Assembly (NCBI GenBank): GCA_944393715.1
Contig: CALYBB010000050.1
Span: 1-53,675 of the forward strand
Direction of reading: 5' to 3'
From: an uncultured Alphaproteobacteria bacterium
GTDB taxonomy: Bacteria > Pseudomonadota > Alphaproteobacteria > RF32 > CAG-239
DNA: 53,675 nucleotides
A program made the translations under genes and the position numbers. Below, in pieces: positions 110 through 33,684 of the stretch. The notes beneath the pieces are model-generated. The model saw nothing but the letters and a program-made list of their open reading frames with translations, did no database searches and was not told where the DNA came from. Each line of letters opens with the position of its first letter. Position 1 is the stretch's first letter.

Positions 110-185
110 TGGTGAGCGCGTCGGGATTCGAACCCGAGACCCTTTGATTAAAAGTCAAATGCTCTACCAGCTGAGCTACGCACCC
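110..185 (-). tRNA. tRNA-Lys (UUU)
   Basis: Reverse complement is GGGTGCGTAGCTCAGCTGGTAGAGCATTTGACTTTTAATCAAAGGGTCTCGGGTTCGAATCCCGACGCGCTCACCA; cloverleaf, anticodon TTT, CCA end. Confidence 0.97.
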
Positions 186-337: not shown

Positions 338-661
338 ATGGAAAATAATCAAATTTCCGCAGAAGACAACGAAGGAACGTACGAAATTTTGCAGAATGCC
401 GCCGGCGAAATTCTGATTATGATCAAGCAACGCCGCGGCGGGCCGGAAAATCCACGCTTTGTTTATGATGGCGGCGAGGCGGCATTGCTGTATCGGAGTC
501 GTGAAAGTTCGGTTTTTTTAAGCGGCATCAATCAGGAGGCACGTCAACCTCTTAAAGCTGTTGACGAAGTGCTGGTCGCAGAGATTGACGGCGATGAAGT
601 AGCGCGTGAGTACACAGTTCCTGTTCGTTTGATCAGGGATTTAAAAACTGTTTTGAACTAG
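338..661 (+). CDS. Hypothetical protein (107 aa)
   Basis: ATG with GAGG RBS; globular acidic composition; no family recognised. Confidence 0.8.
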   Translation: MENNQISAEDNEGTYEILQNAAGEILIMIKQRRGGPENPRFVYDGGEAALLYRSRESSVFLSGINQEARQPLKAVDEVLVAEIDGDEVAREYTVPVRLIRDLKTVLN

Positions 662-752: not shown

Positions 753-2411
753 ATGGTTTTACAACTGTTTGTTTGTCTTCTGACCATAGCGGCGGCATCT
801 TTATTAATTACACAAGGGCGTCGTCGGCGAATCTGGTCGGTTCTGATCTTTGCGGGTCTCAGCATAATGGCCTATTTGTTCATGAACACACTGAGCGGCG
901 TTCAGGGCGGCAGTTTTATCTATCAATGGCTGCCTTATGATACACTGAAAGCCGATATCAGCATTTCGTCTTCTTTGCGAATGCGGCAGATGTTTATGCC
1001 TCTGATATGTCTGCTTGCAGGATTGGTCTATCTAAATACGATATTTGCCTCAGAACGTCATTCATTGCACTTTAATATTTTAATGCTGTTAAATTTTGTC
1101 AGCCTTATTTTGTTGGCATCCAGCCACGATTTTTTGCAGTTGTTATTTGCTGGCAGCATGCTTTCGGTCATCAGCTTTTACATGCCTGATCTGATTTTGC
1201 CCAAAAAAAAGATTTTTATTTTCAATTTTTTGGCAGAGATGGCGGTGTTTATGGCATTGGCAATTGTATACAGCCGGACGAAATCTGTCAGTCTGGTATC
1301 TCTGTCGGAATATGCAGCTGATGGCAGGCACAAAGATCTGACGGCCTTTTTGCTGTTGTTTGCCATCGGCATCAAATGCGGGTTGTTTTTGCTTAACGGA
1401 CAATATTATAATCTGAAAGACATAGCCTTTAATCGCATTATCGGCATTATGGCTTTATCGGTTCCTCTTTCTGGTCTGTTTCTTGCCGACAAGCTTCGTC
1501 CGTTGTTGGAGGCTTCTGATTTGGCAGAGGCCGGTCTTCCGGTATGGTGCACTCTATCGGTTATCATCGGATTGATAAGTTCATTAATAAATAACAACCT
1601 GAAATCCAAAGTCATTTCTTTGTCACTGGCAATTTATGGTCTGGCATTGTTTTTGGTTTGGAAGGATGCCCGCCTTTTGCAGACTTTGGCCTTGGATGTT
1701 TTAATATTAAACACCTTCGTGCTGGCGGCTTTTCTTTTTGTATCACAAGCCGCCTCAGAAGAAAGCGATGTATCGCGTCTTGGTGGTTTTATTCGCTACA
1801 CCAAAGGCAATTTTGCCTTAACTTGTTTGATTATGATGCTTGTCGCCTCAGGTCTGTCCTCGTGGTCTGATAATTCATTAGTCTTTAAATTTGTGGTGGC
1901 TTATTTGACTGTTTTGGCAGCGAATTTTAGGATTATTTATTGGGGAAGAACCAGAGCGGACGAAAAAGTCCTGGCCTTTGCTCGCAGTGCCGGTGTGTTA
2001 TATAGTGTGCCTTTAGCGGGGATTTGTATATGGTTGCTGTGGCAACAACAGATCTGGAGAAATATGGCGGCTTATGAATTTTTTGGATGGTCGGCGGCGG
2101 TATTTTTGCTTTGCCCCGTTTTGTGGATAGTTAATCTGGGCAATCGGGAAATCTTAAAAGCCGATATTTTATCAACCGTATACGAAAGATTGGTCATTAG
2201 GCCTCTTAAATTTTGTGGCCGGATCCTCTGGTTGGTTTTTGACGTCGTCGTTATTGAACGCAGTGTCATCGCTACATTATCTGCCGCAGCCTCGATGGTG
2301 GTTTCCGCAATGCAAAAAGCCCAAGAGGCACGGATAAAAAACTATATTTTGAGTATCTTGGGTGGTTTGAGCATCATGCTGCTGTATTGGGGATTTTATG
2401 TTTATGAGTAG
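753..2411 (+). CDS. nuoL: NuoL/MrpA-like antiporter-type membrane subunit, highly divergent
   Basis: Polytopic hydrophobic protein; SHDFLQLL and AIGIKCG segments and C-terminal 'KAQEARIKNYI' resemble NuoL; position before nuoM-nuoN-birA. Confidence 0.75.
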   Translation: MVLQLFVCLLTIAAASLLITQGRRRRIWSVLIFAGLSIMAYLFMNTLSGVQGGSFIYQWLPYDTLKADISISSSLRMRQMFMPLICLLAGLVYLNTIFASERHSLHFNILMLLNFVSLILLASSHDFLQLLFAGSMLSVISFYMPDLILPKKKIFIFNFLAEMAVFMALAIVYSRTKSVSLVSLSEYAADGRHKDLTAFLLLFAIGIKCGLFLLNGQYYNLKDIAFNRIIGIMALSVPLSGLFLADKLRPLLEASDLAEAGLPVWCTLSVIIGLISSLINNNLKSKVISLSLAIYGLALFLVWKDARLLQTLALDVLILNTFVLAAFLFVSQAASEESDVSRLGGFIRYTKGNFALTCLIMMLVASGLSSWSDNSLVFKFVVAYLTVLAANFRIIYWGRTRADEKVLAFARSAGVLYSVPLAGICIWLLWQQQIWRNMAAYEFFGWSAAVFLLCPVLWIVNLGNREILKADILSTVYERLVIRPLKFCGRILWLVFDVVVIERSVIATLSAAASMVVSAMQKAQEARIKNYILSILGGLSIMLLYWGFYVYE

Positions 2412-3834
2412 TTCTTTTGCCATTTTGACATTGATCATCTGCGTCCCTTTTGTTGGGATGTTATTCGTGTTGACGGCCAAGGAAACGGCAGACCATACGT
2501 CGCACAATAGTTTTAATGTTGCTCTTTTTACCATTATTGCCAATTTGGTTATGATTTGGCGCGTATTTATGCTGATAGACGAAAAACAGCTGAGGTTGCA
2601 GTTGTTTGAAAAATTTGACTGGCTTTCGGTTCCGGATATCAATTTAGTATTTGCGGTGGACAATTTGTCGTTGTTGATGATATTGGCCGTTCATCTGGTT
2701 ATTTTAACGGGAGTGATTTTCAATCGCACGGAGACAAAGCGCCAAAAACCACAGATGGCAATGACGTTGCTGTTTTTAAGCATGACGACGGGTTTTTTTG
2801 TCGCGGCAGATATTTTTTCGTTTTTTATCTTTTTTGAAGCAATGTTGCTGCCGTTGTTTATGTTGACCGGAATGTTTGGCGATTTCAAAAGGCCGGAACG
2901 CCTGAATGGCTTTTTCCTGTACAACTTGCTGGGTGCTTTCATATTATTTTTTGCCGTTTTGCTTATTTACAAATTTTACGGCAGTCTGCCTCTAAATCGT
3001 TCAAACGAAATTCTGTGGACCCAAAATTATGGAGGAATTATCTGGAGTGCTTTGGCTGTCGGGCTGATCTCCAGAATTCCGATCTGGCCTTTTCACCACT
3101 GGATATCTTCGGTTACGGCAAAGATTCATGATCCTTTGGTGTTTATAGCGTCATCAATTCTGCCGCTGAGCGGAATTTACGGTTTGGTTCGTTTTTGGCC
3201 GGATAATATTCCGACTCAAGTCAGCGATTTCTTTTTTTTAATAAATATTGTTGGTACCGTGACAATGTTATTTATCAGCCTAATAGGTTTTATTCATAAA
3301 GATACGCAGTACAAGATTTTTTCTTTCGTAACGGTATATTATGTTATGTATCTTTTAGGAATTTTCAGCGGAGAAAATTTAATTCTTCAGGATATTGGCT
3401 ATGCCCTGTTTGGTTTTTTGATCGTTTTTGCATCATTGGAAGTGGTCTCGGCCTATATTTACCGCCAAGAACGCTTGCACGACAGCAGTTCTTCGGGTTT
3501 TCTTTGCCGAGCCAAAAGACTATCGCTGATATATTCTTTTTTGACTTTTGCTTCGGCCGGTTTTCCCATTTCGGCTATGTTTACCAATAATTTTTTGATT
3601 TTATCGCAGCTGTTGTCAAAGAATATTCAGTTAGGGACAATTTTAATGTTAGCCGGCATTATTGCTGCCGCAGCATTAATTCGCGAGATGTTTCGCCTAA
3701 AAACGGACAGCAAAGAGTGTATACTGGGCAAAGCAGAAGATTTGCCGGTAGCTCAATTCCTCTATATGCTGTTTATGGTATTTTTGTTGCTAATGTCATT
3801 TATCAGACCATTATGGTTTGTTATCAATGAGTAG
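2398..3834 (+). CDS. nuoM: NuoM-like membrane subunit, divergent
   Basis: AVDNLSLLMIL, FFIFFEAMLLPLFML, PIWPFHHW and YGLVRF motifs of NuoM. Confidence 0.88.
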   Translation: MFMSSSFAILTLIICVPFVGMLFVLTAKETADHTSHNSFNVALFTIIANLVMIWRVFMLIDEKQLRLQLFEKFDWLSVPDINLVFAVDNLSLLMILAVHLVILTGVIFNRTETKRQKPQMAMTLLFLSMTTGFFVAADIFSFFIFFEAMLLPLFMLTGMFGDFKRPERLNGFFLYNLLGAFILFFAVLLIYKFYGSLPLNRSNEILWTQNYGGIIWSALAVGLISRIPIWPFHHWISSVTAKIHDPLVFIASSILPLSGIYGLVRFWPDNIPTQVSDFFFLINIVGTVTMLFISLIGFIHKDTQYKIFSFVTVYYVMYLLGIFSGENLILQDIGYALFGFLIVFASLEVVSAYIYRQERLHDSSSSGFLCRAKRLSLIYSFLTFASAGFPISAMFTNNFLILSQLLSKNIQLGTILMLAGIIAAAALIREMFRLKTDSKECILGKAEDLPVAQFLYMLFMVFLLLMSFIRPLWFVINE

Positions 3835-3848
3835 GGGGATAAGGGAAA

Positions 3849-5273
3849 GTGTTGCAAAATTGGTTTATTTTATTGCCGGAGTTTTGTTTGCTGAGTTTTT
3901 TTCCTATTGCTTGGCTGGTTGATATTTTTCGTCGGGAAAAAACAGCCAAGACTTTTTTTACATTGGCTCAGGCTTTTCTTTTGCTTACCATCGGCACAAC
4001 GATTTTATTTTATGATAAAAGCGCTTTTCCGTCATATTGGCGCAATACGGCGTTGACAACGTTGTTTAAAATTTTTGTTTATTTGTTGGCTTGGGCGTGG
4101 TTTTATCTATCCTCAAAATGGTTTCTGAACAAAAAACGTGCATCTTTCAAATTTTACGCGGCATGCTTTATATTGCTTTTGGGGTTTGATATGTTAGCTT
4201 CATCGGCTTCTCTTTTGGCTCTTGGTACGGCTGTGCCGCTCATTTGCAGCGGATATGTTTGTCTGATACTGCGACATTGGGATATTGATAAAGTCAAAAA
4301 ACCGGCGGCGGCTTTTGCGGTGAGTGCGCTGTCTTTTTGTGCATTGCTATGGATAGGTATAAGTTTCATCCGCTTTTATGCGGGCAGTTTTGAATATGAA
4401 GAGATCAGTCGTTTTTTTGCAAAAGATCCTACTGCTGACGCGCTGCCATTGGCCGGTGTTTTGATGGTTATATCGGCTTTAATGTTCATGATGGCGGTGG
4501 TTCCGTTTCACACATGGTTCATCTCTTTTATTTCAACGGCAGTTTTACCTGTCTGTGGTTTTATTACGTTGATTCCGCCATTGATATATTTCTGTGCGCT
4601 GATCAATTTGGTAAAAGGCGGATTTGAACCTTTGGGGGATTTTATTGTGCCGGTTCTAACTATTTTCTCCCTGCTAACGTTGATAACGGGAGCTTTATCA
4701 GCCAATCACGAAAATAATCTACGACGGTTGTTTGGTTTTTTGAGCCTCTACATTCAGGGTTTTACACTCATCGGCGTAATGGATTTTTCCCGCGGCAGTA
4801 TGATGGCTGCATTCGCCTATATTGTAATATCTGTCTTATCATTGGCAGGAATTTATACGGTTTTTTTAGGTCTCAAGTCTCGAGGCGAATATTTAAGCGA
4901 GCAAGCCGATATAACGGGCTTTTCCGAAATCCGGCCTTATATGTCGGCAGCGCTTTTGGTTTTTATGTTTTCACTGATTGGATTGGCTCCGACTTTAGGT
5001 TTTTTTGGTAATTTGTCGATTATTAACGTCTTAATTGAAAACGAAGCTTGGGGCAGGGCAGCGATATTATTGCCAAGTCTGTTGTTTGTTGCCGGCGCAT
5101 GTCTTCAGGTTGTCGGAACATTTTATTTTAAACCTCTATCTAATAAATTTGATCGCGTTGATAAAGCTGTTTACATCTGTCTGTTCATCAATATGGTGTT
5201 TATCCTGCTGGCGCTGATTAATCCGGCATGGTTGCTGCGTGACGCTTTTGTTATATTGGGAGATGTGTCATAA
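3849..5273 (+). CDS. nuoN: NuoN-like membrane subunit, divergent
   Basis: LLPE N-terminus, AVVPFHTW, NLRRLFGF and FMFSLIGLAPTLGFFG motifs of NuoN; GTG start. Confidence 0.85.
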   Translation: MLQNWFILLPEFCLLSFFPIAWLVDIFRREKTAKTFFTLAQAFLLLTIGTTILFYDKSAFPSYWRNTALTTLFKIFVYLLAWAWFYLSSKWFLNKKRASFKFYAACFILLLGFDMLASSASLLALGTAVPLICSGYVCLILRHWDIDKVKKPAAAFAVSALSFCALLWIGISFIRFYAGSFEYEEISRFFAKDPTADALPLAGVLMVISALMFMMAVVPFHTWFISFISTAVLPVCGFITLIPPLIYFCALINLVKGGFEPLGDFIVPVLTIFSLLTLITGALSANHENNLRRLFGFLSLYIQGFTLIGVMDFSRGSMMAAFAYIVISVLSLAGIYTVFLGLKSRGEYLSEQADITGFSEIRPYMSAALLVFMFSLIGLAPTLGFFGNLSIINVLIENEAWGRAAILLPSLLFVAGACLQVVGTFYFKPLSNKFDRVDKAVYICLFINMVFILLALINPAWLLRDAFVILGDVS

Positions 5274-5992
5274 TACAGGAACAGCAAATAGCCTCATGGA
5301 TATGGCGCGATTATCGGGAGGTTGGTTCAACCAATGATTTGGCCAAGGCGCATAGTTTGTCTTTTGACGGGCATCCTCTCGTCTTTACGTCAATTTCCCA
5401 AACCGCCGGTCGCGGCCGTTTGGGACGCAGATGGATATCCCGTTCCGGCAATTTATTTATGAGTCAGTTATTAAATCCAAAATTACCGATGTCGGATCTG
5501 GTTTTTATTGTGGCTGTCAGTGTAGCAGAAGCCCTTTCTTCCGTAGCACAGGGGATAGACATTGCAATAAAGTGGCCTAATGACATTTTGGTCTCCGGCG
5601 CCAAGATCTGCGGTATCTTGATTGAAGGAGCTTCTTCTGAAACGGTTGTGATAGGCATCGGTATTAATTTGGTTTCTGCGCCGCCGGCTGATCAGATTAT
5701 GTATCCGGCGGTTGACTTGCTTTCGCTTGGTTTCAGGGTAGAGCGCGAAACATTACTAAAAGCCTATTTATCATATTTTGATGCCAATATCAAACAATGT
5801 CACGAACAAGGTTTTCAATCAATTCGCGACAAATGGCTGCGCTATGCTTTTAATCTCGGAAAAAACATCAAAATAAACAGTGGCGGAAAAATTCTCGAGG
5901 GCATATTTAAAGGTGTTGACGAAAAAGGTTTTTTGTTGTTAAAACAAGACGAAACAATTACGAGAATAACCGTCGGAGATGTGTTTGTATAA
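5270..5992 (+). CDS. birA: Biotin--[acetyl-CoA-carboxylase] ligase (no HTH domain)
   Basis: QTAGRGRLGRRW, KWPND and KICGILIE motifs; in-frame EVGSTND motif lies upstream of the 5339 TTG, so the start is placed provisionally at ATA 5270. Confidence 0.93.
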   Translation: MIQEQQIASWIWRDYREVGSTNDLAKAHSLSFDGHPLVFTSISQTAGRGRLGRRWISRSGNLFMSQLLNPKLPMSDLVFIVAVSVAEALSSVAQGIDIAIKWPNDILVSGAKICGILIEGASSETVVIGIGINLVSAPPADQIMYPAVDLLSLGFRVERETLLKAYLSYFDANIKQCHEQGFQSIRDKWLRYAFNLGKNIKINSGGKILEGIFKGVDEKGFLLLKQDETITRITVGDVFV

Positions 5993-6003: not shown

Positions 6004-7671
6004 ATGGAAGGTTTTGAGAAAGAAGGAATTTATTTCGTCGCGTTAGGCGGCGCTGAAGAAGTCGGCTTTAATATGTTTGCTTATATTGTTGATGGTCGGA
6101 TTATCGTAGTTGATGCCGGATATGGTTTCCTGCGCGATGATTTTCCGGGGATTGAAATGGGGCTGGTCGATGTATCTTTTTTAGAAAATTATCGCGACAA
6201 TATTGAGGCGATGTTTATTACCCACGGTCATGAAGATCATTATGGCGCCATAGGTCATATTTTGCCCAAATTGCAATGCCCTGTTTATGCCAATGATTTT
6301 ACGTTAGGACACATTCGGGAGCGTTTGCGTGAATACCATTGGGAAAATTTTGCAGATTTACATTCGGCAACGGCCGAACCCATCGTTAAATTAAATAATT
6401 TTGAGATTGAATTTGTTTCGTTGGTGCATTCGGTGCCGCAAAGCTCAGGCTTGTTTATCCGCACGCGCTACGGTAATATCCTTCACGCAACGGATTGGCG
6501 TTTTGATGACGGTAAAACGGCTATGTTGCCGACGGATTTTCCGTCATTGCGCAAAATTGCCGCAGAAGGCGTGGCTCTTTATGTCGGAGATTCAACAAAT
6601 ATGTCCGAAACATTGCCGGAACCGACCGAGTATGAAATTCGTGAAAGTCTGATAAAATTAATTCCGTCTCTGTCAAATACGGTTGTGGCAACGTGCTTTG
6701 CGTCCAATATCATGCGTCTCGAAAGCTTGATCATGGCGGCCGATGCTGCTTCACGCACCGCGGTTATTGTTGGTTATTCACTCAATCAAAATTTTAAAAT
6801 AGCCCGCGAATGTGGCTATCTACAATCTTGTCCACCGGTTTTTGATATCAAAGAAGCCAAAGATATTCCGTCGGATAAAGCTGTCTATATCTGTGCTGGC
6901 TCTCAGGGAAACTACCGTTCGACATTGAGCCGCATAGCAAACGGCGAGAGCAAAGATATTGTTTTAAGCAAAGGAGACAATATCATCTTTTCTTCAAAAA
7001 TCATTCCGGGAAACGAAGAAAAAATTGAGAGGATGCAGGAGAAACTACGGGATGCCGGCGTAACGGTCATCTCGGCAGAAGACTATTTGGTTCATGCTTC
7101 GGGGCACGCAACACCCGAGCAGATATCAGATATGTACCGCTTACTTAAACCGCAAACCGTTATTCCTGTTCACGGAGACAAACGCAATATCCGCCGGCAA
7201 AAAAAGCTGGCGTTGGAGAACGGCGTTGGTAATGTCTTGACGGTGCGCAACGGCGAGGTCGTGTTATTAAAAGACAGCCGTGCCGAAATTGTTTTCGAAA
7301 TTTTTACCCACAAGCTCGGTGTTGACCGCCGCCAGCTGACGCCGCTTGATTCGCCGCTGATTAGGAGTCGCCGCCGCATCGCCTATAATTGCTCAGTCTT
7401 TATCAGTGCTTTTTTTGCTCGAGACTGGCGTTTGGTCAATTTGCAAATAAGTTCAATCGATATTTTAGAAGAAGAAGCTTTCACGGAGCTGCGAGATAGA
7501 ATCATCATGGATGTTTCAAAAGATATTGATAAAGAAGTTATCAAACTCAATCATAACGAAAACCAAATAAAAGAATATCTGGCAGCCCGCATCCGTCGTC
7601 AAATATTTAAGGCTACGGATATTAAGCCGGTTGTCTTTATGCATTTCTATAAAGAGCCCGACGAAAGCTAA
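6004..7671 (+). CDS. rnj: Ribonuclease J
   Basis: ALGGAEEVGFN, THGHEDH, HASGHA and PVHG metallo-beta-lactamase/beta-CASP motifs; typical position after birA. Confidence 0.95.
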   Translation: MEGFEKEGIYFVALGGAEEVGFNMFAYIVDGRIIVVDAGYGFLRDDFPGIEMGLVDVSFLENYRDNIEAMFITHGHEDHYGAIGHILPKLQCPVYANDFTLGHIRERLREYHWENFADLHSATAEPIVKLNNFEIEFVSLVHSVPQSSGLFIRTRYGNILHATDWRFDDGKTAMLPTDFPSLRKIAAEGVALYVGDSTNMSETLPEPTEYEIRESLIKLIPSLSNTVVATCFASNIMRLESLIMAADAASRTAVIVGYSLNQNFKIARECGYLQSCPPVFDIKEAKDIPSDKAVYICAGSQGNYRSTLSRIANGESKDIVLSKGDNIIFSSKIIPGNEEKIERMQEKLRDAGVTVISAEDYLVHASGHATPEQISDMYRLLKPQTVIPVHGDKRNIRRQKKLALENGVGNVLTVRNGEVVLLKDSRAEIVFEIFTHKLGVDRRQLTPLDSPLIRSRRRIAYNCSVFISAFFARDWRLVNLQISSIDILEEEAFTELRDRIIMDVSKDIDKEVIKLNHNENQIKEYLAARIRRQIFKATDIKPVVFMHFYKEPDES

Positions 7672-21634: not shown

Positions 21635-23827
21635 ATGCAGAATTTATTATCAAAAGAGGAAATGGAAGCCGTTATCAATGGCGATTACAGCAATATTTTT
21701 GCCGTTTTAGGCATACATAAAAACAAAGGCTCTAAAGAGGTCTTTGTCCGTGCTTACCAACCGCATTCAACATCGGTTGAAGTGCTGGACGGCAGCGGAA
21801 ATTCATTGGGAATGATGACCAAACTTGACGAACGCGGATTTTACCAAATTGAGCTCGGTCGCACGGATGATTTTGATTATAAATTCCGCATCACAAATGA
21901 TCAAAACTATACATATATCGCCGAGGATGTTTATCGCTTTGGGCCAACATTGGGTGATATGGATATTTATCTTTTGGCCGAGGGCAGCCATCTTGAGATG
22001 TACAAAAAACTCGGTGCGCATATCCGCGAGATGGAAGGAGTCAAAGGCGTCAGCTTTGCCGTTTGGGCACCTAATGCCAAACGCGTCAGCGTCGTCGGCG
22101 CTTTCAACAACTGGGATGGTCGTGTCAATGTTATGCGCAAGCATCCTTCCTGCGGCGTATGGGATATTTTTATCCCCGGCATCGGCGAGGGCGAACTTTA
22201 TAAGTTCGAGATAAAGACACAAAACGACAACATTTTTCTAAAAGCCGATCCGGTCGCCTTTTATGCCGAAAAGCGCCCCAACACGGCCTCTGTTGTTTAT
22301 GATCTGAATCATTATCTTTGGAACGATGCCGAGTGGATGAATTATCGCCGCGACCACAACTCTTTTGATCGTCCGATGTCTGTTTATGAGGTTCATCTTG
22401 GTTCATGGCGTCGCAAAGAAGGAAACGAATACCTGACTTATCGAGAACTGGCAGACAGTTTAATTCCTTATGTTTCCAATATGGGCTTTACCCATGTTGA
22501 ATTTTTACCGGTAGCCGAACATCCGCTGGATGCATCTTGGGGTTACCAGGTTATCGGTATGTTTGCACCGACATCGCGTTTCGGGACGCCGGATGATTTT
22601 CGCTATTTGATTGACAAATTTCATCAAGCCGGCATCAGCGTCATCATGGACTGGGTTCCGGCGCATTTTCCGAAAGACGCCCACGGGCTGAATGAATTTG
22701 ACGGCACCCATCTTTATGAACATGCCGATCCGCGCAAGGGCGAGCATGCTGATTGGGGAACCAAGATCTATAATTACGGCCGCGCCGAGGTCTCGAATTT
22801 CCTTTGTGCCAGCGCGCTTTATTGGCTAAAGGAATACCACGTGGACGGCTTGCGGGTTGATGCAGTTGCTTCAATGCTATACTTAGACTATTCGCGCAAA
22901 AACGGTGAATGGATTCCCAACCAATACGGCGGCAACGAAAATATTGAGGCCATTGCTTTTCTGCGTCGCATGAATGAATTGGCCTATTCTCAGGTCGATG
23001 GTGCCATAACCATTGCCGAAGAATCAACCGCATGGCCGATGGTTTCCAGACCGACGTCAATGGGCGGTTTGGGCTTTGGCTATAAATGGAACATGGGGTG
23101 GATGAACGACACGCTGCGCTATATTTCGCATGAGCCGGTGCATCGCAAATATCATCACGGTATGCTCACTTTTGGGTTGCTATATGCCTTTAATGAAAAT
23201 TTTATTTTGCCGATCTCGCATGACGAAGTTGTCCACGGCAAGGGATCAATGTTGTCCAAAATGCCCGGCGATGAGTGGCAGAAATTTGCCAATCTGCGTG
23301 CTTATTACGGTTTTATGTACACCCATCCGGGGAAAAAATTGCTGTTTATGGGGTGCGATTTTGGGCAGGATTATGAGTGGAATTCGGAAGAGGGACTGCG
23401 TTGGTTTTTGCTGGACTATCCTATGTATAAGGGGCTGCAAAACTGCGTTCGGGATCTAAACTTGATGTACAAGGGAAATGCGCCGCTCTATCAGCAGGAT
23501 TTTGATTACCGCGGTTTTGAATGGATTGATCATTCCAATGCCGATGACAGTGTTGTTTCCTACATGCGCAAAGGTTACAACCCTGGAGATTATCTGATCG
23601 CCGTGTGCAATTTTACGCCGGTCGTACGCAACAATTACCGCATTGGTGTTCCGGAAGAAATCCAATATCAAGAAATTTTTAATAGTGATGACGTAAACTA
23701 CTGGGGAAGTGGCGTTAAGAATGAAGGTTTTATGCAGGCAGAGGCCAAAGAATGCAACTATAAACCGTATTCAATCAATCTGACGCTTCCGCCGTTGTCA
23801 ACGATTGTTCTTAAGCCTGTCCGCTGA
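21635..23827 (+). CDS. glgB: 1,4-alpha-glucan branching enzyme
   Basis: FAVWAPNA, YEVHLGSW, DGLRVDAVASMLY, AEESTAW and SHDEVVHGK. Confidence 0.98.
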   Translation: MQNLLSKEEMEAVINGDYSNIFAVLGIHKNKGSKEVFVRAYQPHSTSVEVLDGSGNSLGMMTKLDERGFYQIELGRTDDFDYKFRITNDQNYTYIAEDVYRFGPTLGDMDIYLLAEGSHLEMYKKLGAHIREMEGVKGVSFAVWAPNAKRVSVVGAFNNWDGRVNVMRKHPSCGVWDIFIPGIGEGELYKFEIKTQNDNIFLKADPVAFYAEKRPNTASVVYDLNHYLWNDAEWMNYRRDHNSFDRPMSVYEVHLGSWRRKEGNEYLTYRELADSLIPYVSNMGFTHVEFLPVAEHPLDASWGYQVIGMFAPTSRFGTPDDFRYLIDKFHQAGISVIMDWVPAHFPKDAHGLNEFDGTHLYEHADPRKGEHADWGTKIYNYGRAEVSNFLCASALYWLKEYHVDGLRVDAVASMLYLDYSRKNGEWIPNQYGGNENIEAIAFLRRMNELAYSQVDGAITIAEESTAWPMVSRPTSMGGLGFGYKWNMGWMNDTLRYISHEPVHRKYHHGMLTFGLLYAFNENFILPISHDEVVHGKGSMLSKMPGDEWQKFANLRAYYGFMYTHPGKKLLFMGCDFGQDYEWNSEEGLRWFLLDYPMYKGLQNCVRDLNLMYKGNAPLYQQDFDYRGFEWIDHSNADDSVVSYMRKGYNPGDYLIAVCNFTPVVRNNYRIGVPEEIQYQEIFNSDDVNYWGSGVKNEGFMQAEAKECNYKPYSINLTLPPLSTIVLKPVR

Positions 23828-23843
23828 AAAATAAGGAGGCCGT

Positions 23844-25922
23844 ATGGCGAGATTTAGGTCATTTTCCGGTTCGCCGGTTCCGCTCGGATCATCTTATGAT
23901 GGTCAAGGAGTGAATTTTGCCCTATTTTCGGCGCATGCCTCTAAAGTAGAACTCTGTTTGTTTGATGCCAGCGGATCAGAAGAATTGGAACGTTACGCAA
24001 TTACGGAAAATACCGACGGCATCTGGCATATTTATTTATCACAGGCCAAGCCCGATCTGGTCTATGGCTACAGAGTCTATGGTCCGTACAAACCGTCGGA
24101 AGGTATGCGCTTTAATCCAAACAAGCTGCTGATAGATCCCTACGGCAAAAAGCTCGTCGGCACATTGATCTGGAATAAAGCCATCTTCGGCTACGATATC
24201 GACAGTCCCGAAAAAGATTTGTCTTTTTCGCCGTTGGATTCAGCACCGTATGTTCCCAAATCGGTTGTGGTTGATGACAATGCCTATAATTGGGAAGGCG
24301 ACAAAACGTTGCTATATCCGTTAAGCAAGAGCGTTATTTACGAAGCGCATCTGCGCGGTTCGACCAGACTCAGCCCCTTTTTGCCGGATTCCAAACGGGG
24401 AACCTTTGCCGGTTTTGCGGAAGATTCGACGATCAATTATCTGAAACATTTAGGAATTACGGCGGTAGAATTTCTTCCTGTTCATGCTTTTTTTGGCAAC
24501 CGGCACAAGCGTGGATATATTATTGATAATTATTGGGGCTATGAAAGTTTTAGTTTTTTCGCACCGGAACAATCATACCTTGCAACAGGGGATTTTGACG
24601 AAATCCGCGACATGGTCAAAAAGCTTCACGCTCACGGCATCGAAGTAATCTTGGATGTCGTTTACAATCACACCGGCGAAGGCAACCATTTGGGACCGAC
24701 TTTGTGCTATCGCGGCATTGATAATGCCTCTTACTACGTGCTTAATCCGGATAACCGCCGTTTATACATGGACACGACCGGTTGCGGCGCCTCTTTAAAT
24801 TTGCAAAACCCGAACGTTATTCGTCTGGTAATGGATTCTCTGCGCTATTGGGTTGAAAAAATACACATTGACGGTTTTCGTTTTGATCTGGCAACGACGC
24901 TCTGCCGCCGTGATGGGGAGTTTAAACAAACAAGTGGCTTTTTATATGCTGTGGCGCAGGATGAGGTCTTGCGGAGAGTTAAACTGATTGCTGAACCATG
25001 GGATGTCGGAGTAGGTGGCTACCGGCTGGGGGCGTTTTTACCCGGTTGGGCTGAATGGAACGATAAATACCGCGATAACATCCGCCGCTTTTGGAAAGGA
25101 GATCCGGGGCAGGTTGCCGAACTGGCATCGCGTCTGACCGGCTCCAGCGAGATCTTTAATCATAACAATCGCTCAATTTCCTCAAGCATCAATTTTATTA
25201 CCGCGCATGACGGTTTCACACTGAATGATCTCGTCAGCTACAACATAAAACATAATATGGCCAACGGTGAAAATAACCGCGACGGAACGGATTCAAACTG
25301 GAGCTGGAACTCCGGTGTCGAAGGAGAAAGCAACAATGCCGTAATCATCAAAAACCGCCGCGATCGCTCACGCGCCATGCTGGCAACCCTAATGCTGTCT
25401 TTTGGCACGCCGATGCTGGTTTTTGGTGATGAATTTATGCGTAGTCAGCTGGGCAACAACAATCCTTATTGCCAAGACAACGCTATTACTTGGGTAACAT
25501 GGGAAGGAATTTCGGCAGCGCAAAAGCAGATGATCGGCTTTGTTCGCCGATTAATCCGTCTGCGGCATAAGCTCAAAATTTTTGACCGTAGCCGTTTCTT
25601 TACTGGAAAGGTTGTTGATACCTGCGGGAACAAAGATTTAGCATGGTATACCGAAACGGGCAAAGAGTTTTCAGAAAGCGATTGGCACGATGCCAATCGG
25701 CGGACGTTGTCCTATTTGGTTAAAAACGGTAAAGAATTTGTGCTGGCAATTTTTAATGCTGATTATCAAAAAAAAGAATGGAAATTGCCGACTGTCGGAG
25801 AAAAAAAATCATGGTCGTTGCTTTTGGATACTTCAGAAACATTTGCCGATAAAGATAAACTCTGTGCGGGAAAAACTGTTTTAGTTCCGGCTTGGAGTGT
25901 TTTATTAATTGAGATCAAATAG
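23844..25922 (+). CDS. glgX: Glycogen debranching enzyme
   Basis: GVNFALFSAHA, NYWGY, DGFRFDLA, AEPWD and FITAHDGFTL. Confidence 0.97.
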   Translation: MARFRSFSGSPVPLGSSYDGQGVNFALFSAHASKVELCLFDASGSEELERYAITENTDGIWHIYLSQAKPDLVYGYRVYGPYKPSEGMRFNPNKLLIDPYGKKLVGTLIWNKAIFGYDIDSPEKDLSFSPLDSAPYVPKSVVVDDNAYNWEGDKTLLYPLSKSVIYEAHLRGSTRLSPFLPDSKRGTFAGFAEDSTINYLKHLGITAVEFLPVHAFFGNRHKRGYIIDNYWGYESFSFFAPEQSYLATGDFDEIRDMVKKLHAHGIEVILDVVYNHTGEGNHLGPTLCYRGIDNASYYVLNPDNRRLYMDTTGCGASLNLQNPNVIRLVMDSLRYWVEKIHIDGFRFDLATTLCRRDGEFKQTSGFLYAVAQDEVLRRVKLIAEPWDVGVGGYRLGAFLPGWAEWNDKYRDNIRRFWKGDPGQVAELASRLTGSSEIFNHNNRSISSSINFITAHDGFTLNDLVSYNIKHNMANGENNRDGTDSNWSWNSGVEGESNNAVIIKNRRDRSRAMLATLMLSFGTPMLVFGDEFMRSQLGNNNPYCQDNAITWVTWEGISAAQKQMIGFVRRLIRLRHKLKIFDRSRFFTGKVVDTCGNKDLAWYTETGKEFSESDWHDANRRTLSYLVKNGKEFVLAIFNADYQKKEWKLPTVGEKKSWSLLLDTSETFADKDKLCAGKTVLVPAWSVLLIEIK

Positions 25923-25931
25923 GAGAAACAG

Positions 25932-28055
25932 ATGGACGAAAATCTGCAAAAACTGGCTGAAAAAGCAGGCATCGCTGTTTCTTTTTCAGATGCGGGACTA
26001 CAGCATCGAAATTACGAAGTTGATGAAAAGACCATCAGATTTTTTCTTAAAGCACTCGGATATCCGGCCGATACGGATAGTCAGATTAAAACGTCGTCGG
26101 AGCGTTTGGAAAAACGCCGTTGGCAAACGGTATTGCAGCCGATATACACTTGCCGGCAAAACAATGTGATAATCGATATAGTCGCAGAAGATTTATCAAA
26201 CATTAATTTAAGAGTACGGAATGCTTCGGGATGCGATTACGAATTAGGCTATGAGTATCAGCGCAACGCAGTGAACTTTGGACGTCTTTACAAAGAAGAT
26301 TTGAAAATCACCACGTCGTTGGATATCGGTTATTATGATTTAACGGCAACCGTCGGCGGCAAAGATTTTAAGACGCTTTTGGCTGTTGCACCGGACAAAT
26401 GCTATAATGCACTGCCGCCGGAAAAAAAATTGTGGGGTTTTGCGCTTCAGCTTTATTCCGTCAAGAGCAAACGCAACTGGGGCATTGGCGATTTTACCGA
26501 TTTAAAAAATTTTATCAGACTCTGTCAAAAATCCGGTGCCGATGTCATAGGTGTAAACCCCCTGAATGTCTTGAGTCATGACTATCCGGAAGAAGCCAGT
26601 CCATACGCTTCTACCTCACGGCAGTATCTTAATCCGATTTATATAGATATCGAGGCAGTTCCGGAATTCAATCCGGCAGATGCGGCACAATTTAAAGATC
26701 GTCTTGATGAATTACGCGCCTCTCCGCTGATTAACTATACGGACATCTATGAATTAAAGATCAAAATGCTGGAAAAATGTTTTGCTCGTTTTAGCAAGAA
26801 TAAGGATTCTGAGCGGCAGCACGCTTATGATGAGTTCTGCCTCAGTCAAGGCGAAAGTTTGCAGCGTTTGGCTGTTTTTCAAGCATTGTATGAGCAGCAA
26901 ACCAAAACCGTTTGGGGTGGATGGCGGGCATGGCCGAAAGAATACCGTTCGCCAACAACCCTCGGAACCAGAAAATTCGCAGCAGAAAACAAAACAAGAA
27001 TTGAATTTTTCAAATTCATGCAATTTGAGGCGGCTCGTCAGTTGAATGAGGTAGGCACCGAAAGCAAAGCTTGCGGGTTGCGAATAGGACTTTATTGTGA
27101 TCTGGCGGTCGGTGTTGGCCGCGACAGCGCCGAAAATTGGAGCAATACGGGGCTTTTTATTAAAGACGCAGGAGCCGGTGCGCCGCCGGATGCTTTTTTT
27201 TCCAGCGGGCAAAAATGGGGATTGGGTGCTTTTTTGCCGCGAGAACTTAAAGAGCAAAAATACCAGCCTTTTATCAGAATCTTGCGCGCCAATATGCAAA
27301 ATGCCGGCGCTTTGCGTATAGATCATGTGATGAGCTTGATGCGGCTGTACATTATTCCTGATGCCGGCAATTTGGGAACTTATCTGTATTACAACTTTGA
27401 GGATATGTTAAATATTGTGGCCTTGGAAAGTTGTCTGAACAAATGTATGGTTGTCGGTGAGAGCATCGGTAATGTACCACAGGGGTTTATGGAGGCTATT
27501 CGTTCGCGGGGTATTTATTCGCTGAGTGTTTTATGGGCTGAGCGCTGGAATGATGGTCGGGGAGACTTTAAAGCGCCAGCGCAGTACCCGCCAGCGGCTT
27601 TTGCTTCTGTCGGGACACATGATATGGCGCCATTGCGGATGTGGTGGTTTGGCTATGATATTGAACTGAACTTTTCGCTGGGTATTATCAAAACGCCTGC
27701 AGAACGCGAAGGCGCTTATCATCAAAGAGAAGCAGATCGAAAAAAACTTTTGACGGCTTTAGATGAAGCCGGAGTTTGGCCGACGGACAAACCGCGTTGC
27801 GGCGATTATCTGTTTGGCGAAAAATATCCCGAAGGGATTGAGGAAGCCGTAATGCGGTTTATGGCCAAATCGGCGGCGCCGGTATTTTTGGCACAGCTTG
27901 AGGATATTTTGCACGTTGAAAAAATGCAAAATGTTCCGGGAACCGACCGTGACAAATATCCCAACTGGCGTCACAAACTTCCGGTAAATCTTGAAGATTT
28001 GCCGGAAGATCCTGCCTTCATCCGCTGCATTGATGCAATTTGTAAGGAGCGGTAA
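25932..28055 (+). CDS. malQ: 4-alpha-glucanotransferase (GH77)
   Basis: WGIGDFTDL, DLAVG, GAPPD, LRIDHVM and GTHDM. Confidence 0.96.
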   Translation: MDENLQKLAEKAGIAVSFSDAGLQHRNYEVDEKTIRFFLKALGYPADTDSQIKTSSERLEKRRWQTVLQPIYTCRQNNVIIDIVAEDLSNINLRVRNASGCDYELGYEYQRNAVNFGRLYKEDLKITTSLDIGYYDLTATVGGKDFKTLLAVAPDKCYNALPPEKKLWGFALQLYSVKSKRNWGIGDFTDLKNFIRLCQKSGADVIGVNPLNVLSHDYPEEASPYASTSRQYLNPIYIDIEAVPEFNPADAAQFKDRLDELRASPLINYTDIYELKIKMLEKCFARFSKNKDSERQHAYDEFCLSQGESLQRLAVFQALYEQQTKTVWGGWRAWPKEYRSPTTLGTRKFAAENKTRIEFFKFMQFEAARQLNEVGTESKACGLRIGLYCDLAVGVGRDSAENWSNTGLFIKDAGAGAPPDAFFSSGQKWGLGAFLPRELKEQKYQPFIRILRANMQNAGALRIDHVMSLMRLYIIPDAGNLGTYLYYNFEDMLNIVALESCLNKCMVVGESIGNVPQGFMEAIRSRGIYSLSVLWAERWNDGRGDFKAPAQYPPAAFASVGTHDMAPLRMWWFGYDIELNFSLGIIKTPAEREGAYHQREADRKKLLTALDEAGVWPTDKPRCGDYLFGEKYPEGIEEAVMRFMAKSAAPVFLAQLEDILHVEKMQNVPGTDRDKYPNWRHKLPVNLEDLPEDPAFIRCIDAICKER

Positions 28056-28690
28056 TGCAAAATAAAATACTGGTATTTGATGTGGATAATACCCTGTACT
28101 ATGCAGGAGACAAGGTTGAAGACGAGGTCAATATAAAAAGAAATCTCTTTTTTATGGAAAAATTACACCTAAGTGAGGATGAAGCGCTTGGGTTCATCAG
28201 CAAAATCCGCAAAAACAATTTGTACGAGGTCGAAGCAATAACGGATGACATGCCTTTTACCAAACAGGAGTTTATGGACGACGTGTGCGATGTTGATGTG
28301 AGCTTTTTGCCGCGCAATAAAAAGTTAAATGAGCTGCTCAAAAAACTACCGCAACGCAAATTTATCATCACCGACAGCATCATAAAACATGTGCATGATG
28401 TTTTAAAAGCAATCAACGTTGATGAAGATAATTTTGAAGATATTTTCGACGGTCATGCCATGAATTATACTTTTAAACATGATCCGCAGTGCTTTGTCAA
28501 TTTTTTGCGCCGGTATAATCTCAAGGCTCAAGACTGCCTTTTGTTTGAAGATAATCTGGACAATTTGTGCGCGGCCAAAAGTGTCGGTCTGGCCACGGTT
28601 TTAATTACCCCTGAGCCGACAAAAAAACATCCCTTCGTTGATCAATCTTTTCCGGATATTGTTACCGCATTGGCAACACTGACAAAATAA
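28055..28690 (+). CDS. HAD hydrolase, pyrimidine 5'-nucleotidase-like
   Basis: FDVDNTLY motif I; FEDNLDNL motif IV. Confidence 0.85.
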   Translation: MQNKILVFDVDNTLYYAGDKVEDEVNIKRNLFFMEKLHLSEDEALGFISKIRKNNLYEVEAITDDMPFTKQEFMDDVCDVDVSFLPRNKKLNELLKKLPQRKFIITDSIIKHVHDVLKAINVDEDNFEDIFDGHAMNYTFKHDPQCFVNFLRRYNLKAQDCLLFEDNLDNLCAAKSVGLATVLITPEPTKKHPFVDQSFPDIVTALATLTK

Positions 28691-28746
28691 TCCCAAAGGT
28701 ATAATTTTTTTTTTTTTTGTTATTGATTTTTAACTAATTCTATGTA

Positions 28747-28769
28747 TACATACTCCGTGAATGTATGTA
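28747..28769. promoter_or_regulatory. AcrR-type operator palindrome
   Basis: TACATAC-tccgtgaat-GTATGTA inverted repeat upstream of the TetR gene, overlapping the likely -10 region. Confidence 0.8.
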
Positions 28770-28794
28770 GATGTTCTTAATATGGAAGTTAAAA

Positions 28795-29412
28795 ATGGCC
28801 AGAAAAACAAAGGAAGATGCCGAACAAACCCGTCAGGCAATTCTCGATTCGGCGTTGCAGACTTTTTATGAAAAAGGTTTTGCTCGTGCCACGTTTGACG
28901 AGATCGCCAAGCGCATAAATCTCACTAAAGGGGCGGTTTATTGGCATTTCCGCAATAAAACGGATTTGATTGCCGCATTAATACAACAAAAAATATCCGA
29001 TCACCGCAGGGTAACGCCGGTTATCAGCTTAGAAAATTTGGCAGAGCTTCGGCAGGCAGTAGTCAGTCGTTCAAAAAATATTGAACACGATGCGGACTAT
29101 CGCCGCTTCGTATTTTTTATGATCTATCGCATGGAGTGGTCGGAGGCGGTGCTTGCCAAAGTCTGGCCGGAAATCGGTGAGTTGGTAGAGTTGCCCGAAA
29201 AAATATTGTGCGAAGCCTTGCAAAAGATGCAAAAACAAGGCGAAATAAAAAAAGATGTTGATATTCCTGTGTTGCGAGACACTCTGGTCAGTTTGTGGAA
29301 AGGAATTTTAGGTAAATATGTTGCCGGCTACCAAGCTAAAGAGAGCCTTTCGGAAATGGTAGGCAAAAGTTTTGATATGGTAATTAATAGTGTGAAGGTG
29401 GAGAAGAAATAA
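28795..29412 (+). CDS. acrR: TetR/AcrR family repressor
   Basis: MARKTKEDAEQTRQAILDSA...TKGAVYWHFRNK, the AcrR-type N-terminus. Confidence 0.9.
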   Translation: MARKTKEDAEQTRQAILDSALQTFYEKGFARATFDEIAKRINLTKGAVYWHFRNKTDLIAALIQQKISDHRRVTPVISLENLAELRQAVVSRSKNIEHDADYRRFVFFMIYRMEWSEAVLAKVWPEIGELVELPEKILCEALQKMQKQGEIKKDVDIPVLRDTLVSLWKGILGKYVAGYQAKESLSEMVGKSFDMVINSVKVEKK

Positions 29413-29413
29413 A

Positions 29414-30571
29414 ATGCAGGTTGTAAAAGTACAAAAAAGAAAAATTGTTTTGAATTTTCTGATAATCCTTTTTTGCATCAGCTTGGGCTGGTACTTAAAA
29501 GCCAAACTGACGCCCCAGACTGGTGCCGCAGCCGGAGCAGCCGGCAGCCTGCCGCATGTTTTGGTTGAAGAGGCAATAAAAACGGACGTTTCGCCGCAGA
29601 AAAAATATATTGCCGAGGTTGAAGCAATTAAGAGTGTTGACTTGATTCCTCAGGTTTCCGGCTATGTTGACCAGGTCTTGTTCCAGGAAGGTTCCGTCGT
29701 CAAAGAAGGTGACATTTTGTTTGTGATAGAACAAGATCGTTATATCGCCAATGTCGACTTGGCCAAGGCAGCTCTGGCCAGTGCCAAAGCCAATCTGGTC
29801 AAAACCGAGCGTGACTACAAGCGCCAAAAAGCCTTGAGCAGTCAGCAATACGCATCAAAATCAACTCTGGATACGGCCGAAAGCGCCTATCTGCAGGCCA
29901 AGGCTGCCGTAACCCAGGCCGAGGCCAATTTGGAACTGGCCAAGATTGATATGGAGCATACCGAGATCAAAGCGCCGTTTACCGGCTTGATTGGTAAAGC
30001 CGAAATCACCGAAGGCAACTACGTTAGTTCCAATAGTCAGACACTGGCGCGTATTATCCAAACGTCTCCAATTCGGATTGCCTTTTCGGTTCCGGACAAA
30101 GATGCTTATATGTTCCGTGATTTTAATACCAGCGGTTTAAAAACCCGTCTGTTGATGCCGGACGGTTCAATCTTGAATGAAAATATGACCTCGTTCTTTG
30201 TCAACAACGAGATTAATATCAACACGGCGACGCTTCCGGTTTATCTGGAATATGCCAATGCCAAGCGTGATTTGCTTGCCGGTGGTTATGTCAACGTCAT
30301 TTTGTCATCGGCCAAAGAAACGCCGGCGGTAATTATCAATCCGGCGGCAGTTATGCAAGATGCCAATGGCGCTTATGTCTATACGGTTGATGCCGAAGGC
30401 AAGGTTACCGAACAAAGAGTTCAGCTCGACGGTATGTTTGATGACAAACAGATTGTCTTATCTGGTCTTGAAGGACATGAAAAAGTTATCGTCAGTGGTC
30501 TGCAAAAAGTAACCGACGGTGCGACGGTTCGAGCCAGTCTGGTGTCCAACACAACTGAGGAGGCCAAATAA
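29414..30571 (+). CDS. RND efflux membrane fusion protein (AcrA-like)
   Basis: PQVSG, EGSVVKEGDILF and IKAPFTG lipoyl/hairpin motifs. Confidence 0.93.
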   Translation: MQVVKVQKRKIVLNFLIILFCISLGWYLKAKLTPQTGAAAGAAGSLPHVLVEEAIKTDVSPQKKYIAEVEAIKSVDLIPQVSGYVDQVLFQEGSVVKEGDILFVIEQDRYIANVDLAKAALASAKANLVKTERDYKRQKALSSQQYASKSTLDTAESAYLQAKAAVTQAEANLELAKIDMEHTEIKAPFTGLIGKAEITEGNYVSSNSQTLARIIQTSPIRIAFSVPDKDAYMFRDFNTSGLKTRLLMPDGSILNENMTSFFVNNEININTATLPVYLEYANAKRDLLAGGYVNVILSSAKETPAVIINPAAVMQDANGAYVYTVDAEGKVTEQRVQLDGMFDDKQIVLSGLEGHEKVIVSGLQKVTDGATVRASLVSNTTEEAK

Positions 30572-30573
30572 AT

Positions 30574-33500: not shown

Positions 33501-33684
33501 GGGTGTATTTCCGATGATTGTAGCGACCGGCGCCGGCGCGGCCAGCCGTGTTGCCATCGGCGTGCCGGTTTTCTACGGCATGTTGGTGGGAACGGCGCTG
33601 GGGCTGTTGGTTATTCCGCTTTTGTATGTTTTGTTTGAAACAATATACCAAAAGCTTTCAGGCAAGGACAAAAACAATAAATAA
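30574..33684 (+). CDS. RND efflux permease (AcrB/BepE-like, HAE1)
   Basis: FIERPRFA, GLVVDDAIVVVE, KNAILIVEFA and RAVLMT. Confidence 0.96.
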   Translation: MFSRIFIERPRFAMVISIVLSIAGLISVFSLPIALYPEITPPEIVVSATYPGASAEVVARTVGIPLEEQINGVEDMIYMSSSSEDSSYQLTITFKVGTDSDMAQVKVQNRIQQATSMLPTEVQRQGLTVRSRSSNILGFVSVFSPDNSLNSNELSDYVQNNMKNSLSRVDGVGEVNVYSASLSMRVWLDADKIASLNLPIETIVSAIEGQNYQPSLGKVGAMPGDGKQQMVYALQTQGRVNEVEDFKNIIVRTAEEGGMVRLKDIARIEIGEESYRAASSYNGVPNVAIAINQLTGANALDAMKNLKIELERLKANFPEGVDYLIGYDSTEYIRASIEEVVLTLFFTFGLVILVCYVFLQDWRSTLIPLLTIPVSLLATFAVMLVCGYSLNMLTLFGLVLAIGLVVDDAIVVVERVLFLMAEENLSPKEATIKAMEQISGAVVATTMVLLAIFVPVGFMGGITGKIYQQFAVSISVSVAFSALNALTLSPALCATLLRPLKPFQHGPLFWFNQAVGKARDTYVGIVGIFGRKIGVVAVVYGLALIVIAGILNISQTSFIPSEDQGVIMGNIQLPEGASRERTTAFTNKILPIIMEEPGVDAVMVINGVSMIGGTGENVAMMIATLKPWNQRKGDELYSTNIMNRLRAKIGEYSEAEVQMFEPPAIMGLGMSGGMDFRLQSLNTDDPQVIEAALLSFLSKMNRLPEVSYAYTTYTAKTPNVYVDIDRVKAEALKVGVGSIFSTLQYYLGSAYINDVNFGTQVNKVMVQADWKNRKDIESIKDLHVQSQNGEMVPLGSVVSLSKVLSPRVVTRYNQYPSATITAVQNPAVSTGEAMAAVEKLAQDMPDGFGYEWSGISYQEKSSQGQIGYLIALAILFGYLFLVAQYESWITPLPVLTSVAVAMLGALVGLFITGLPLSIYAQLGLILLVGLASKNAILIVEFAKEEHEKGASLVKSAMTGTKERYRAVLMTAFTFILGVFPMIVATGAGAASRVAIGVPVFYGMLVGTALGLLVIPLLYVLFETIYQKLSGKDKNNK

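Follow-up and report, generated by a model that had tools for sequence, protein, structure and literature searches.

Three consecutive plus-strand genes in a 53,675-nucleotide (nt) stretch of DNA from an uncultured alphaproteobacterium, the whole of which is here called the window, encode diverged versions of NuoL, NuoM and NuoN, the antiporter-like subunits of the distal membrane arm of respiratory complex I. The genes for the NuoL-like protein (L; 552 amino acids, aa), the NuoM-like protein (M; 478 aa) and the NuoN-like protein (N; 474 aa, with a GTG start) lie at 753-2411, 2398-3834 and 3849-5273, respectively, in a genome assembly of 1.40 Mb that is 96.4% complete. We propose that this trio is probably a still-assembled, pump-dead membrane arm, retained for a non-pumping role centred on M. 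A sequence-only reading of this DNA had taken the trio for a possibly repurposed arm, and that view is supported here, with assembly and a new role as its conditional parts.

M and N could be recognised from single sequences, each scoring 80 bits against the Pfam family PF00361 (cut-off 21.5). Their best NCBIfam models were NuoM (TIGR01972, 160 bits) and NuoN (TIGR01770, 165 bits), in both cases below the curated cut-offs of 263.8 and 332.6, and their best solved relatives were the NuoM and NuoN chains, respectively, of Paracoccus and of plant mitochondria; by sequence, we identify the two as a diverged NuoM and a diverged NuoN. The window's L protein alone gave no match in Pfam, NCBIfam or PDB sequences, and PF00361 was reached singly by only 10 of 73 L family members. 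A profile of the 73 L orthologues matched solved NuoL chains (8e9g_L, E = 4.7e-21; 8qby_L, E = 3.5e-18), with a second 8qby_L stretch in which profile positions 468-549 aligned to residues 616-697 of Paracoccus NuoL, that is, to the lateral helix (HL) and the last transmembrane (TM) helix. On these profile matches L is assigned as a highly diverged NuoL, one that public annotation misses, as the public copies carry the name 'hypothetical protein' and no domain.

The residues of M were compared by HMMER alignment to the E. coli and Paracoccus chains and by MAFFT alignment with 20 canonical alphaproteobacterial NuoM sequences from a class-wide sample, all 20 of which contain D135, E144, K234, H248, K265, H322, H348 and E407. 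The window's M retains E144 as E147, together with D138 and H233, and has R226 in place of K234, T240 in place of H248, L257 in place of K265, Y315 in place of H322 and N398 in place of E407. Across the 79 M proteins of the family the aspartate is retained in 78 and the E144 position in 75, K234R and E407N are found in all 79, K265L in 78 and H322Y in 77, and H348 is changed to phenylalanine or tyrosine. P256, Y314, N397 and E348 are newly conserved, and three of these are polar where the canonical residue is apolar (N397 for glycine, Y314 for alanine, E348 for phenylalanine). Of the 223 positions that are at least 90% conserved in canonical NuoM, the family keeps 39 and has replaced the residue at 27 by a different conserved one, and the other 157 are relaxed; at 31 more, conservation is confined to the family, which brings the family-specific conserved positions to 58 in total. 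The 27 switched and 31 newly conserved positions point to a redesign of M rather than decay.

Profile searching across 1.84 billion cluster representatives returned 13,202 hits, among which the M family stands apart, with about 11 full-length representatives scoring 762-363 bits and the next full-length matches scoring about 216 bits. K234R, L264P and E407N are common to all M family representatives. The TM5 glutamate is lost in seven, and E348 replaced in six, of 10 full-length 50%-cluster representatives; these losses weaken the idea that E348, N397/N398 and Y314/Y315 of M form a new cation site, and that idea was dropped. The representative search also returned two NuoM-like proteins with partial loss of the axis residues, P0202 (508 aa) and P0212 (505 aa), the former carrying K234R, H248N, H322Q and E407Q and retaining K265 and H348. 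Both may represent intermediates, or else cases in which the axis degenerated independently elsewhere.

N was treated in the same way, by HMMER alignment to the E. coli and Paracoccus chains and by MAFFT alignment with 20 canonical alphaproteobacterial NuoN sequences, which have E133, K217, K247 and K395 in all 20 cases and H305 in 17. In the window's N these residues are replaced by P130 (E133), M214 (K217), P244 (K247), N388 (K395) and I302 (H305), and all four canonical Glu/Lys residues are absent. Each NuoN and NuoM substitution listed in the sequence-only reading was reproduced in both kinds of alignment with the canonical controls, and none of the missing Lys, Glu or His residues was rescued at a shifted position. 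Among the 81 N proteins of the family, the E133 position is proline in 45 and glutamate or aspartate in eight, the K217 position is methionine in 50 and lysine in two, the K247 position is never lysine, and the K395 position (N388) is lysine in 28, arginine in 28 and tyrosine in 16. This last position changes stepwise, from lysine in the distant clade through arginine in the middle clade to tyrosine, cysteine, histidine, asparagine or glycine in the window's clade, asparagine being a state particular to that clade. The canonically conserved positions of N divide into 21 kept, five switched and 150 relaxed, and strong conservation is seen in two lineage-specific loop motifs (residues 86-97 and residues 434-439). 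All four species that lack E147 of M have G, G, D or L at the N388 position, a co-variation that would fit the canonical contact between TM12 of NuoN and TM5 of NuoM and that amounts to about two independent events only. In a quick maximum-likelihood tree, from which one canonical sequence mis-called at 900 aa (L111) was left out, the 27 sampled NuoN of the family fall in one clade on a long stem, with a support of 100 in the Shimodaira-Hasegawa-like approximate likelihood ratio test (SH-aLRT). Weak NuoN matches elsewhere in the class sample (G168, G152) were considered as further orphans and rejected, since they belong to an ordinary full nuo operon and to an Mrp-like cluster, respectively. 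The class tally counts one genome that is unpublished (G190); none of the conclusions depends on it.

In L, the TM7 lysine K229 is retained as K208 (71 of 73 members), the GWEGVG stretch of NuoL TM5 has no counterpart in the alignment, and no conserved lysine was found in the TM12-like region of the family alignment, in agreement with what the sequence-only reading had noted for this subunit. Of the conserved TM5 Glu, TM7 Lys, TM8 Lys/His, TM10/11 His and TM12 Lys/Glu of the three canonical subunits, this genome has only E147 of M (with arginine in place of K234) and K208 of L left. Hydropathy places four TM-like segments at residues 344-464 (1782-2144, plus strand), where they replace TM12-15, and no conserved charge was found among these residues. 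The ratio of nonsynonymous to synonymous substitution rates (dN/dS) within L is 0.088 for residues 1-343, 0.204 for residues 344-464 and 0.074 for residues 465-552. Residues 344-464 are the least constrained and dispensable part of the protein: four short L proteins (L004, L005, L042 and L043; 428-473 aa) have an in-frame deletion of approximately residues 344-458, and a 436-aa form of L was found in at least nine protein clusters. The best conserved part at the sequence level is residues 465-552 (2145-2411, plus strand), which would form the lateral amphipathic helix and the last TM anchor, and in which the invariant residues P484, G489, R490, D497 and E502 are grouped at the start of the lateral helix. 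This clamp formed by HL and the terminal anchor is retained in the species with the four-TM deletion, and the removal of an even number of segments leaves it on the same side as before.

No other part of complex I turned up in the searches made. Family models for NuoH, NuoD, NuoB and NuoK (PF00146, PF00346, PF01058 and PF00420) gave no match in the 96.4%-complete genome (no such model was run for NuoA, E, F, G or I); tblastn of the genome with the diverged NuoB/C/D/H/J/K of a sister-family genome (G001, described below) gave a best E of 0.19, and PF00361 matches in the window's own genome are confined to the window. In a sample of 149 genomes of the window's family, within 150 genomes of the order, NuoD was found in none and PF00361 is present in 145. 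These searches uphold the earlier suggestion that the lineage has lost respiratory complex I. The genome encodes F-type ATPase subunits and an Rnf/Nqr-type pair (contig C11, 37042-38189), and neither cytochrome bd nor a clear fumarate-reductase flavoprotein was found in it. The Rnf/Nqr-type pair is patchy in the family, not being found in four of the nine family genomes tested, whatever their trio status, and across 10 genomes it did not co-vary with the trio (two trio-bearing genomes lacked Rnf and two trio-less genomes had it).

The trio is widespread among relatives of the window's organism. At least 120 relatives of the N-like protein, of about 474 aa, were among the matches listed, and a scan of species genomes gave 94 encoding loci, of which 80 were kept for analysis, all of them from gut or faecal alphaproteobacterial metagenome-assembled genomes such as 'Proteobacteria bacterium CAG:495' and Candidatus Scatocola, a group that would correspond to RF32/CAG-239 in GTDB. 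N is followed by birA and then by rnj, the RNase J gene, on one strand in 80 of 80 loci, and all three trio genes are there with open frames in 76 of the 76 loci with enough upstream flank, the remaining four being cut by contig ends. Of these 76 loci, 72 encode an L of about 550 aa and four a shorter one of 428-473 aa; M measures 473-481 aa and N 469-490 aa, and the trio lengths are constant over 19 genera. The L and M genes overlap by 14 nt in the window, and M and N are separated by a 14-nt gap containing a purine-rich stretch that resembles a ribosome-binding site; in related loci the L and M genes overlap or adjoin each other, with mostly 8-14 nt between M and N. The window trio had been described as three uninterrupted, tightly spaced open-reading frames (ORFs) with a nuoL/nuoM overlap, and this was confirmed, coordinates included.

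Selection on the three genes is as strong as that on their housekeeping neighbours. The median dN/dS over 21 disjoint species pairs, calculated by the NG86 method and also run on 82 overlapping pairs, rose from 0.038 in M through 0.083 in N to 0.105 in L, and the control genes birA and rnj gave 0.098 and 0.037. M is the most constrained of the three and is held as tightly as RNase J. With no frameshifts or stops in the orthologues of 80 species and with ratios of 0.04-0.1, the earlier argument for selection rather than pseudogenisation stands.

Retention of the trio is all-or-none. In four complete genomes of the 149 sampled from the family the trio was not found, even by the M profile, and a small gene that precedes the trio, here called orfU, persists beside birA in all four. 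At one of these sites orfU is followed by birA directly, and at a second (G022) a 179-aa ORF with a remnant of the L N-terminus is the only decayed copy seen. The trio-less sites in two genomes of one genus (L094, 2382-3242, minus strand; L095, 6902-7705, plus strand) hold an unrelated acidic ORF of 268-287 aa, with a signal-peptide-like start and no family match. The trio has undergone at least three independent clean deletions.

The position of the trio points to its origin. Of 20 canonical alphaproteobacterial loci, 18 have birA immediately after nuoM-nuoN, with RNase J next where the flank reaches it; the trio occupies exactly this ancestral slot before birA-rnj, and the order orfU-L-M-N-birA-rnj recurs in related loci. 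The trio would then be the in-place remainder of the alphaproteobacterial nuo operon after the loss of nuoA-K. In the one genome sampled from the sister family (G001, 79% complete, with a partly masked contig), a different remnant occupies the same slot (locus L087, G001:C81 8250-17446), between an orfU homologue of 50% identity and birA-rnj; it consists of nuoB (139 aa), C, D (365 aa), H (278 aa), J and K, an M truncated to 348 aa and an N of 484 aa. All of these Nuo-like subunits score below the curated cut-offs; the NuoB retains its four cysteines and the N retains the equivalents of E133, K217 and K395, and no nuoA, E, F, G, I or L was seen in the cluster of this 79%-complete genome. Reduction of complex I in the order thus took two different routes, the window's family keeping only L, M and N, and the G001 cluster may itself represent another type of reduced complex I.

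These observations are most readily explained if L, M and N most likely still assemble as the distal membrane arm of complex I, with the lateral helix and last TM helix of the NuoL-like protein clamping the NuoM-like and NuoN-like proteins. All-or-none retention, the tight or overlapping spacing of the genes, the conservation of the NuoL clamp and the one N-M co-variation speak indirectly for assembly, and the first three of these suggest that selection acts on the assembled L-M-N. Such an arm would no longer translocate protons, because the central-axis chain of Lys, Glu and His is gone in all three subunits. Complex I-like proton pumping is very unlikely, as there is no titratable chain, L can lose its exit-side helices and nothing is left to drive a pump. 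Purifying selection equal to that on the neighbouring housekeeping genes argues that the arm is kept for a useful, non-essential and non-pumping role, for which the NuoM-like protein looks like the functional core. Our preference is for a membrane 'pseudo-antiporter' with a structural or organising function, which might act as a docking platform.

Several points weigh against this interpretation. Some charges persist in the arm (D138, E147, R226 and H233 in M, K208 in L, and lysine or arginine at the N388 position in 56 of 81 N proteins), and conserved new polar residues have appeared on the former axis of M (N397, N398, Y314, Y315 and E348), so that some residual or new transport is conceivable. 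The dN/dS of M, at 0.04, might be tighter than expected of a mere scaffold. The three or more independent deletions, and the absence of the trio from four of 149 genomes, mean that its role is useful and at the same time dispensable. No partner was identified among the neighbours, by co-variation with Rnf, by searches for DabA and the NuoB, NuoD and NuoK families, or by the PADLOC defence models, which returned no family for L, M, N or orfU. A variant that takes up some of these points, and that we hold to be rather unlikely, is that the former axis of M has been rebuilt (R226, P256, L257, Y314, Y315, N397, N398 and often E348) so that it would bind or move a non-proton cargo or sense a membrane property, with L and N as clamp and support. 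If true, this would be the first stand-alone, neofunctionalised complex I arm.

The persisting charges and the newly conserved polar residues of M, together with its very low dN/dS, would also be expected if the trio were still an ion conductor, whether a leak, a uniporter or a simplified cation/proton antiporter. A membrane-potential economy built on an F-type ATPase and an Rnf/Nqr-type complex, with no cytochrome bd found, would profit from an ion-converting device, and isolated NuoL and NuoN reportedly move cations or replace MrpA and MrpD. However, the TM8 Lys, the TM10/11 His and the TM12 Glu/Lys that are present in 20 of 20 canonical sequences have become L, Y, F and N in M and M, P and other residues in N, and four species have an in-frame deletion of the L equivalent of TM12-15, the part of canonical NuoL that holds the exit side. 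The TM5 glutamate of M is lost in most of the diverged full-length representatives, among which E348 is not universal, the N388 position drifts along the tree from K through R and Y to N, C, H or G, and no MrpC/NuoK-like subunit was found in the genome. On this evidence an ion conductor seems unlikely. At the opposite extreme, the trio could be a functionless relic, kept by its position upstream of the essential birA and rnj or by the toxicity of mutant membrane proteins. Cells do live without it, as the clean deletions demonstrate, about 70-85% of the canonically invariant positions of M and N are relaxed, and N388 and other sites drift; but polarity would protect reading frames and not amino acids, and dN/dS in the trio equals that of birA and rnj. 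The constancy of lengths over the sampled genera, the single decayed copy in G022 and the family-specific conserved positions of M also count against a relic, an explanation to which we give very little credence, and the constraint at the amino-acid level excludes pure decay.

The trio might instead be the membrane module of a new enzyme, in which an unrecognised partner encoded elsewhere replaces the Q and N modules of complex I and docks on the free face of the N-like subunit or on conserved cytoplasmic loops. Within the complex I superfamily, modules are as a rule re-used (PMC4453560), and the strong selection and the conserved lineage-specific loop motifs of N would suit a docking surface. 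Against this, the conserved neighbours are only the housekeeping genes birA and rnj and orfU, which stays behind when the trio is deleted; Rnf shows no co-variation with the trio; and DabA, NuoB- and NuoD-type hydrogenase subunits and the NuoK/MrpC family were not found in the genome. An arm without titratable residues would also offer little for a partner to drive, and we consider a module of this type quite unlikely.

The closest known system is the distal arm of complex I itself (NuoL/M/N in bacteria, ND5/ND4/ND2 in mitochondria), from which the best matches, the L-M-N order and the slot before birA indicate direct descent. The trio shares with it the implied 14-TM antiporter-like folds, the PFH motif of the broken TM7, and the lateral helix and terminal TM of NuoL. 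It differs in that no NuoB/D/H/K or redox module was found with it, in the loss of the Glu/Lys/His axis, and in how poorly it is recognised, M and N scoring below the NCBIfam cut-offs and single-sequence searches missing L. Mrp antiporters (MrpA/MrpD with MrpB, C, E, F and G) resemble the trio in being a stand-alone PF00361 membrane complex without a redox module, but no subunit of the NuoK/MrpC family (PF00420) was found in the genome (MrpB/E/F/G were not searched for) and the conserved locus of the trio contains no small membrane ORFs. The charged residues common to Mrp and complex I are missing from the trio, and the trio sequences are closer to Nuo than to Mrp models.

Antiporter-like subunits have also been re-used outside complex I, in the CO2-uptake system DAB (DabB/DabA) and in the arms of group 4 [NiFe] hydrogenases, formate hydrogenlyase (FHL) and Mbh. 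The known DAB and hydrogenase-type modules keep their proton-path residues. In the window's genome DabA (PF10070) was not found, and neither were the NuoD-like large and NuoB-like small subunits (PF00346, PF01058) of the hydrogenase-type systems. The reduced nuo cluster of G001 comes from the same order of bacteria, sits in the same slot between orfU and birA-rnj and likewise has subunits below the cut-offs; unlike the trio, it keeps Q-module and E-channel subunits, has no L and a 348-aa M, retains the E133/K217/K395 equivalents in N, and is known from one genome. More distant parallels are the yeast 'transceptors' and ND2 as an Src adaptor outside mitochondria, transporter-derived proteins that no longer transport; they too represent a transporter fold under selection after the loss of transport, but they are single proteins with known signalling partners, whereas the trio is bacterial and has three subunits. 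In the accessible text of the literature we found no account of orphaned and degenerate nuoLMN genes, nor of the energy metabolism of this lineage, and in the available part of PMC4453560 partial nuo operons are mentioned only as lacking nuoEFG.

Upstream of the trio lie a tRNA-Lys gene (110-185, minus strand) and orfU (338-661, plus strand), which encodes a conserved soluble protein of 107 aa that matched no Pfam or NCBIfam family and serves as the upstream synteny anchor. orfU adjoins the trio on the upstream side in 60 of 80 related loci, has a median dN/dS of 0.02, is conserved ahead of the nuo slot across the order, trio-deleted genomes included, and has two paralogues of about 37% identity elsewhere in its own genome (contigs C36 and C38). 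Its persistence in genomes that have lost the trio shows that orfU is no obligate partner. A consensus scan placed a terminator-like hairpin of orfU at 681-709 and, overlapping it, a promoter-like site (TTTAAA-17-TATATT, 692-720) 33 nt ahead of the L start, both on the plus strand; these are matches to consensus only and carry no evidence of function. Downstream, birA (5339-5992, plus strand), which marks the end of the ancestral nuo operon, and rnj (6004-7671, plus strand), both identified by Pfam and NCBIfam matches, form the downstream anchors and are followed by a gene for a PhoR-like kinase on the minus strand and then by mutS. The upstream neighbours differ among the related loci and include FeoAB, a CsoR-like gene, a YbaK-like gene, MerR and DUF4186. 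Elsewhere in the window, ordinary genes make up a glycogen-metabolism cluster (GlgB-like, GlgX-like and 4-alpha-glucanotransferase) followed by TetR and an AcrAB-type resistance-nodulation-division (RND) efflux pair (21635-33684). Two very large ORFs of 2051 aa (33838-39993, plus strand) and 998 aa (40106-43102, minus strand) had no Pfam match at E <= 1e-5 and adjoin an outer-membrane beta-barrel gene.

The three antiporter-like subunits of complex I are normally discussed only as redox-driven proton pumps. Here, a whole gut-associated family of Alphaproteobacteria has long kept the trio without the redox arm or the pumping residues. If the complex forms, it would provide a natural 'pump-dead' arm, in which residues for folding and assembly (the PFH motif of TM7, the interface charges and the NuoL clamp) could be separated from those for proton transfer, and the trio points to a second use of the antiporter-like fold.

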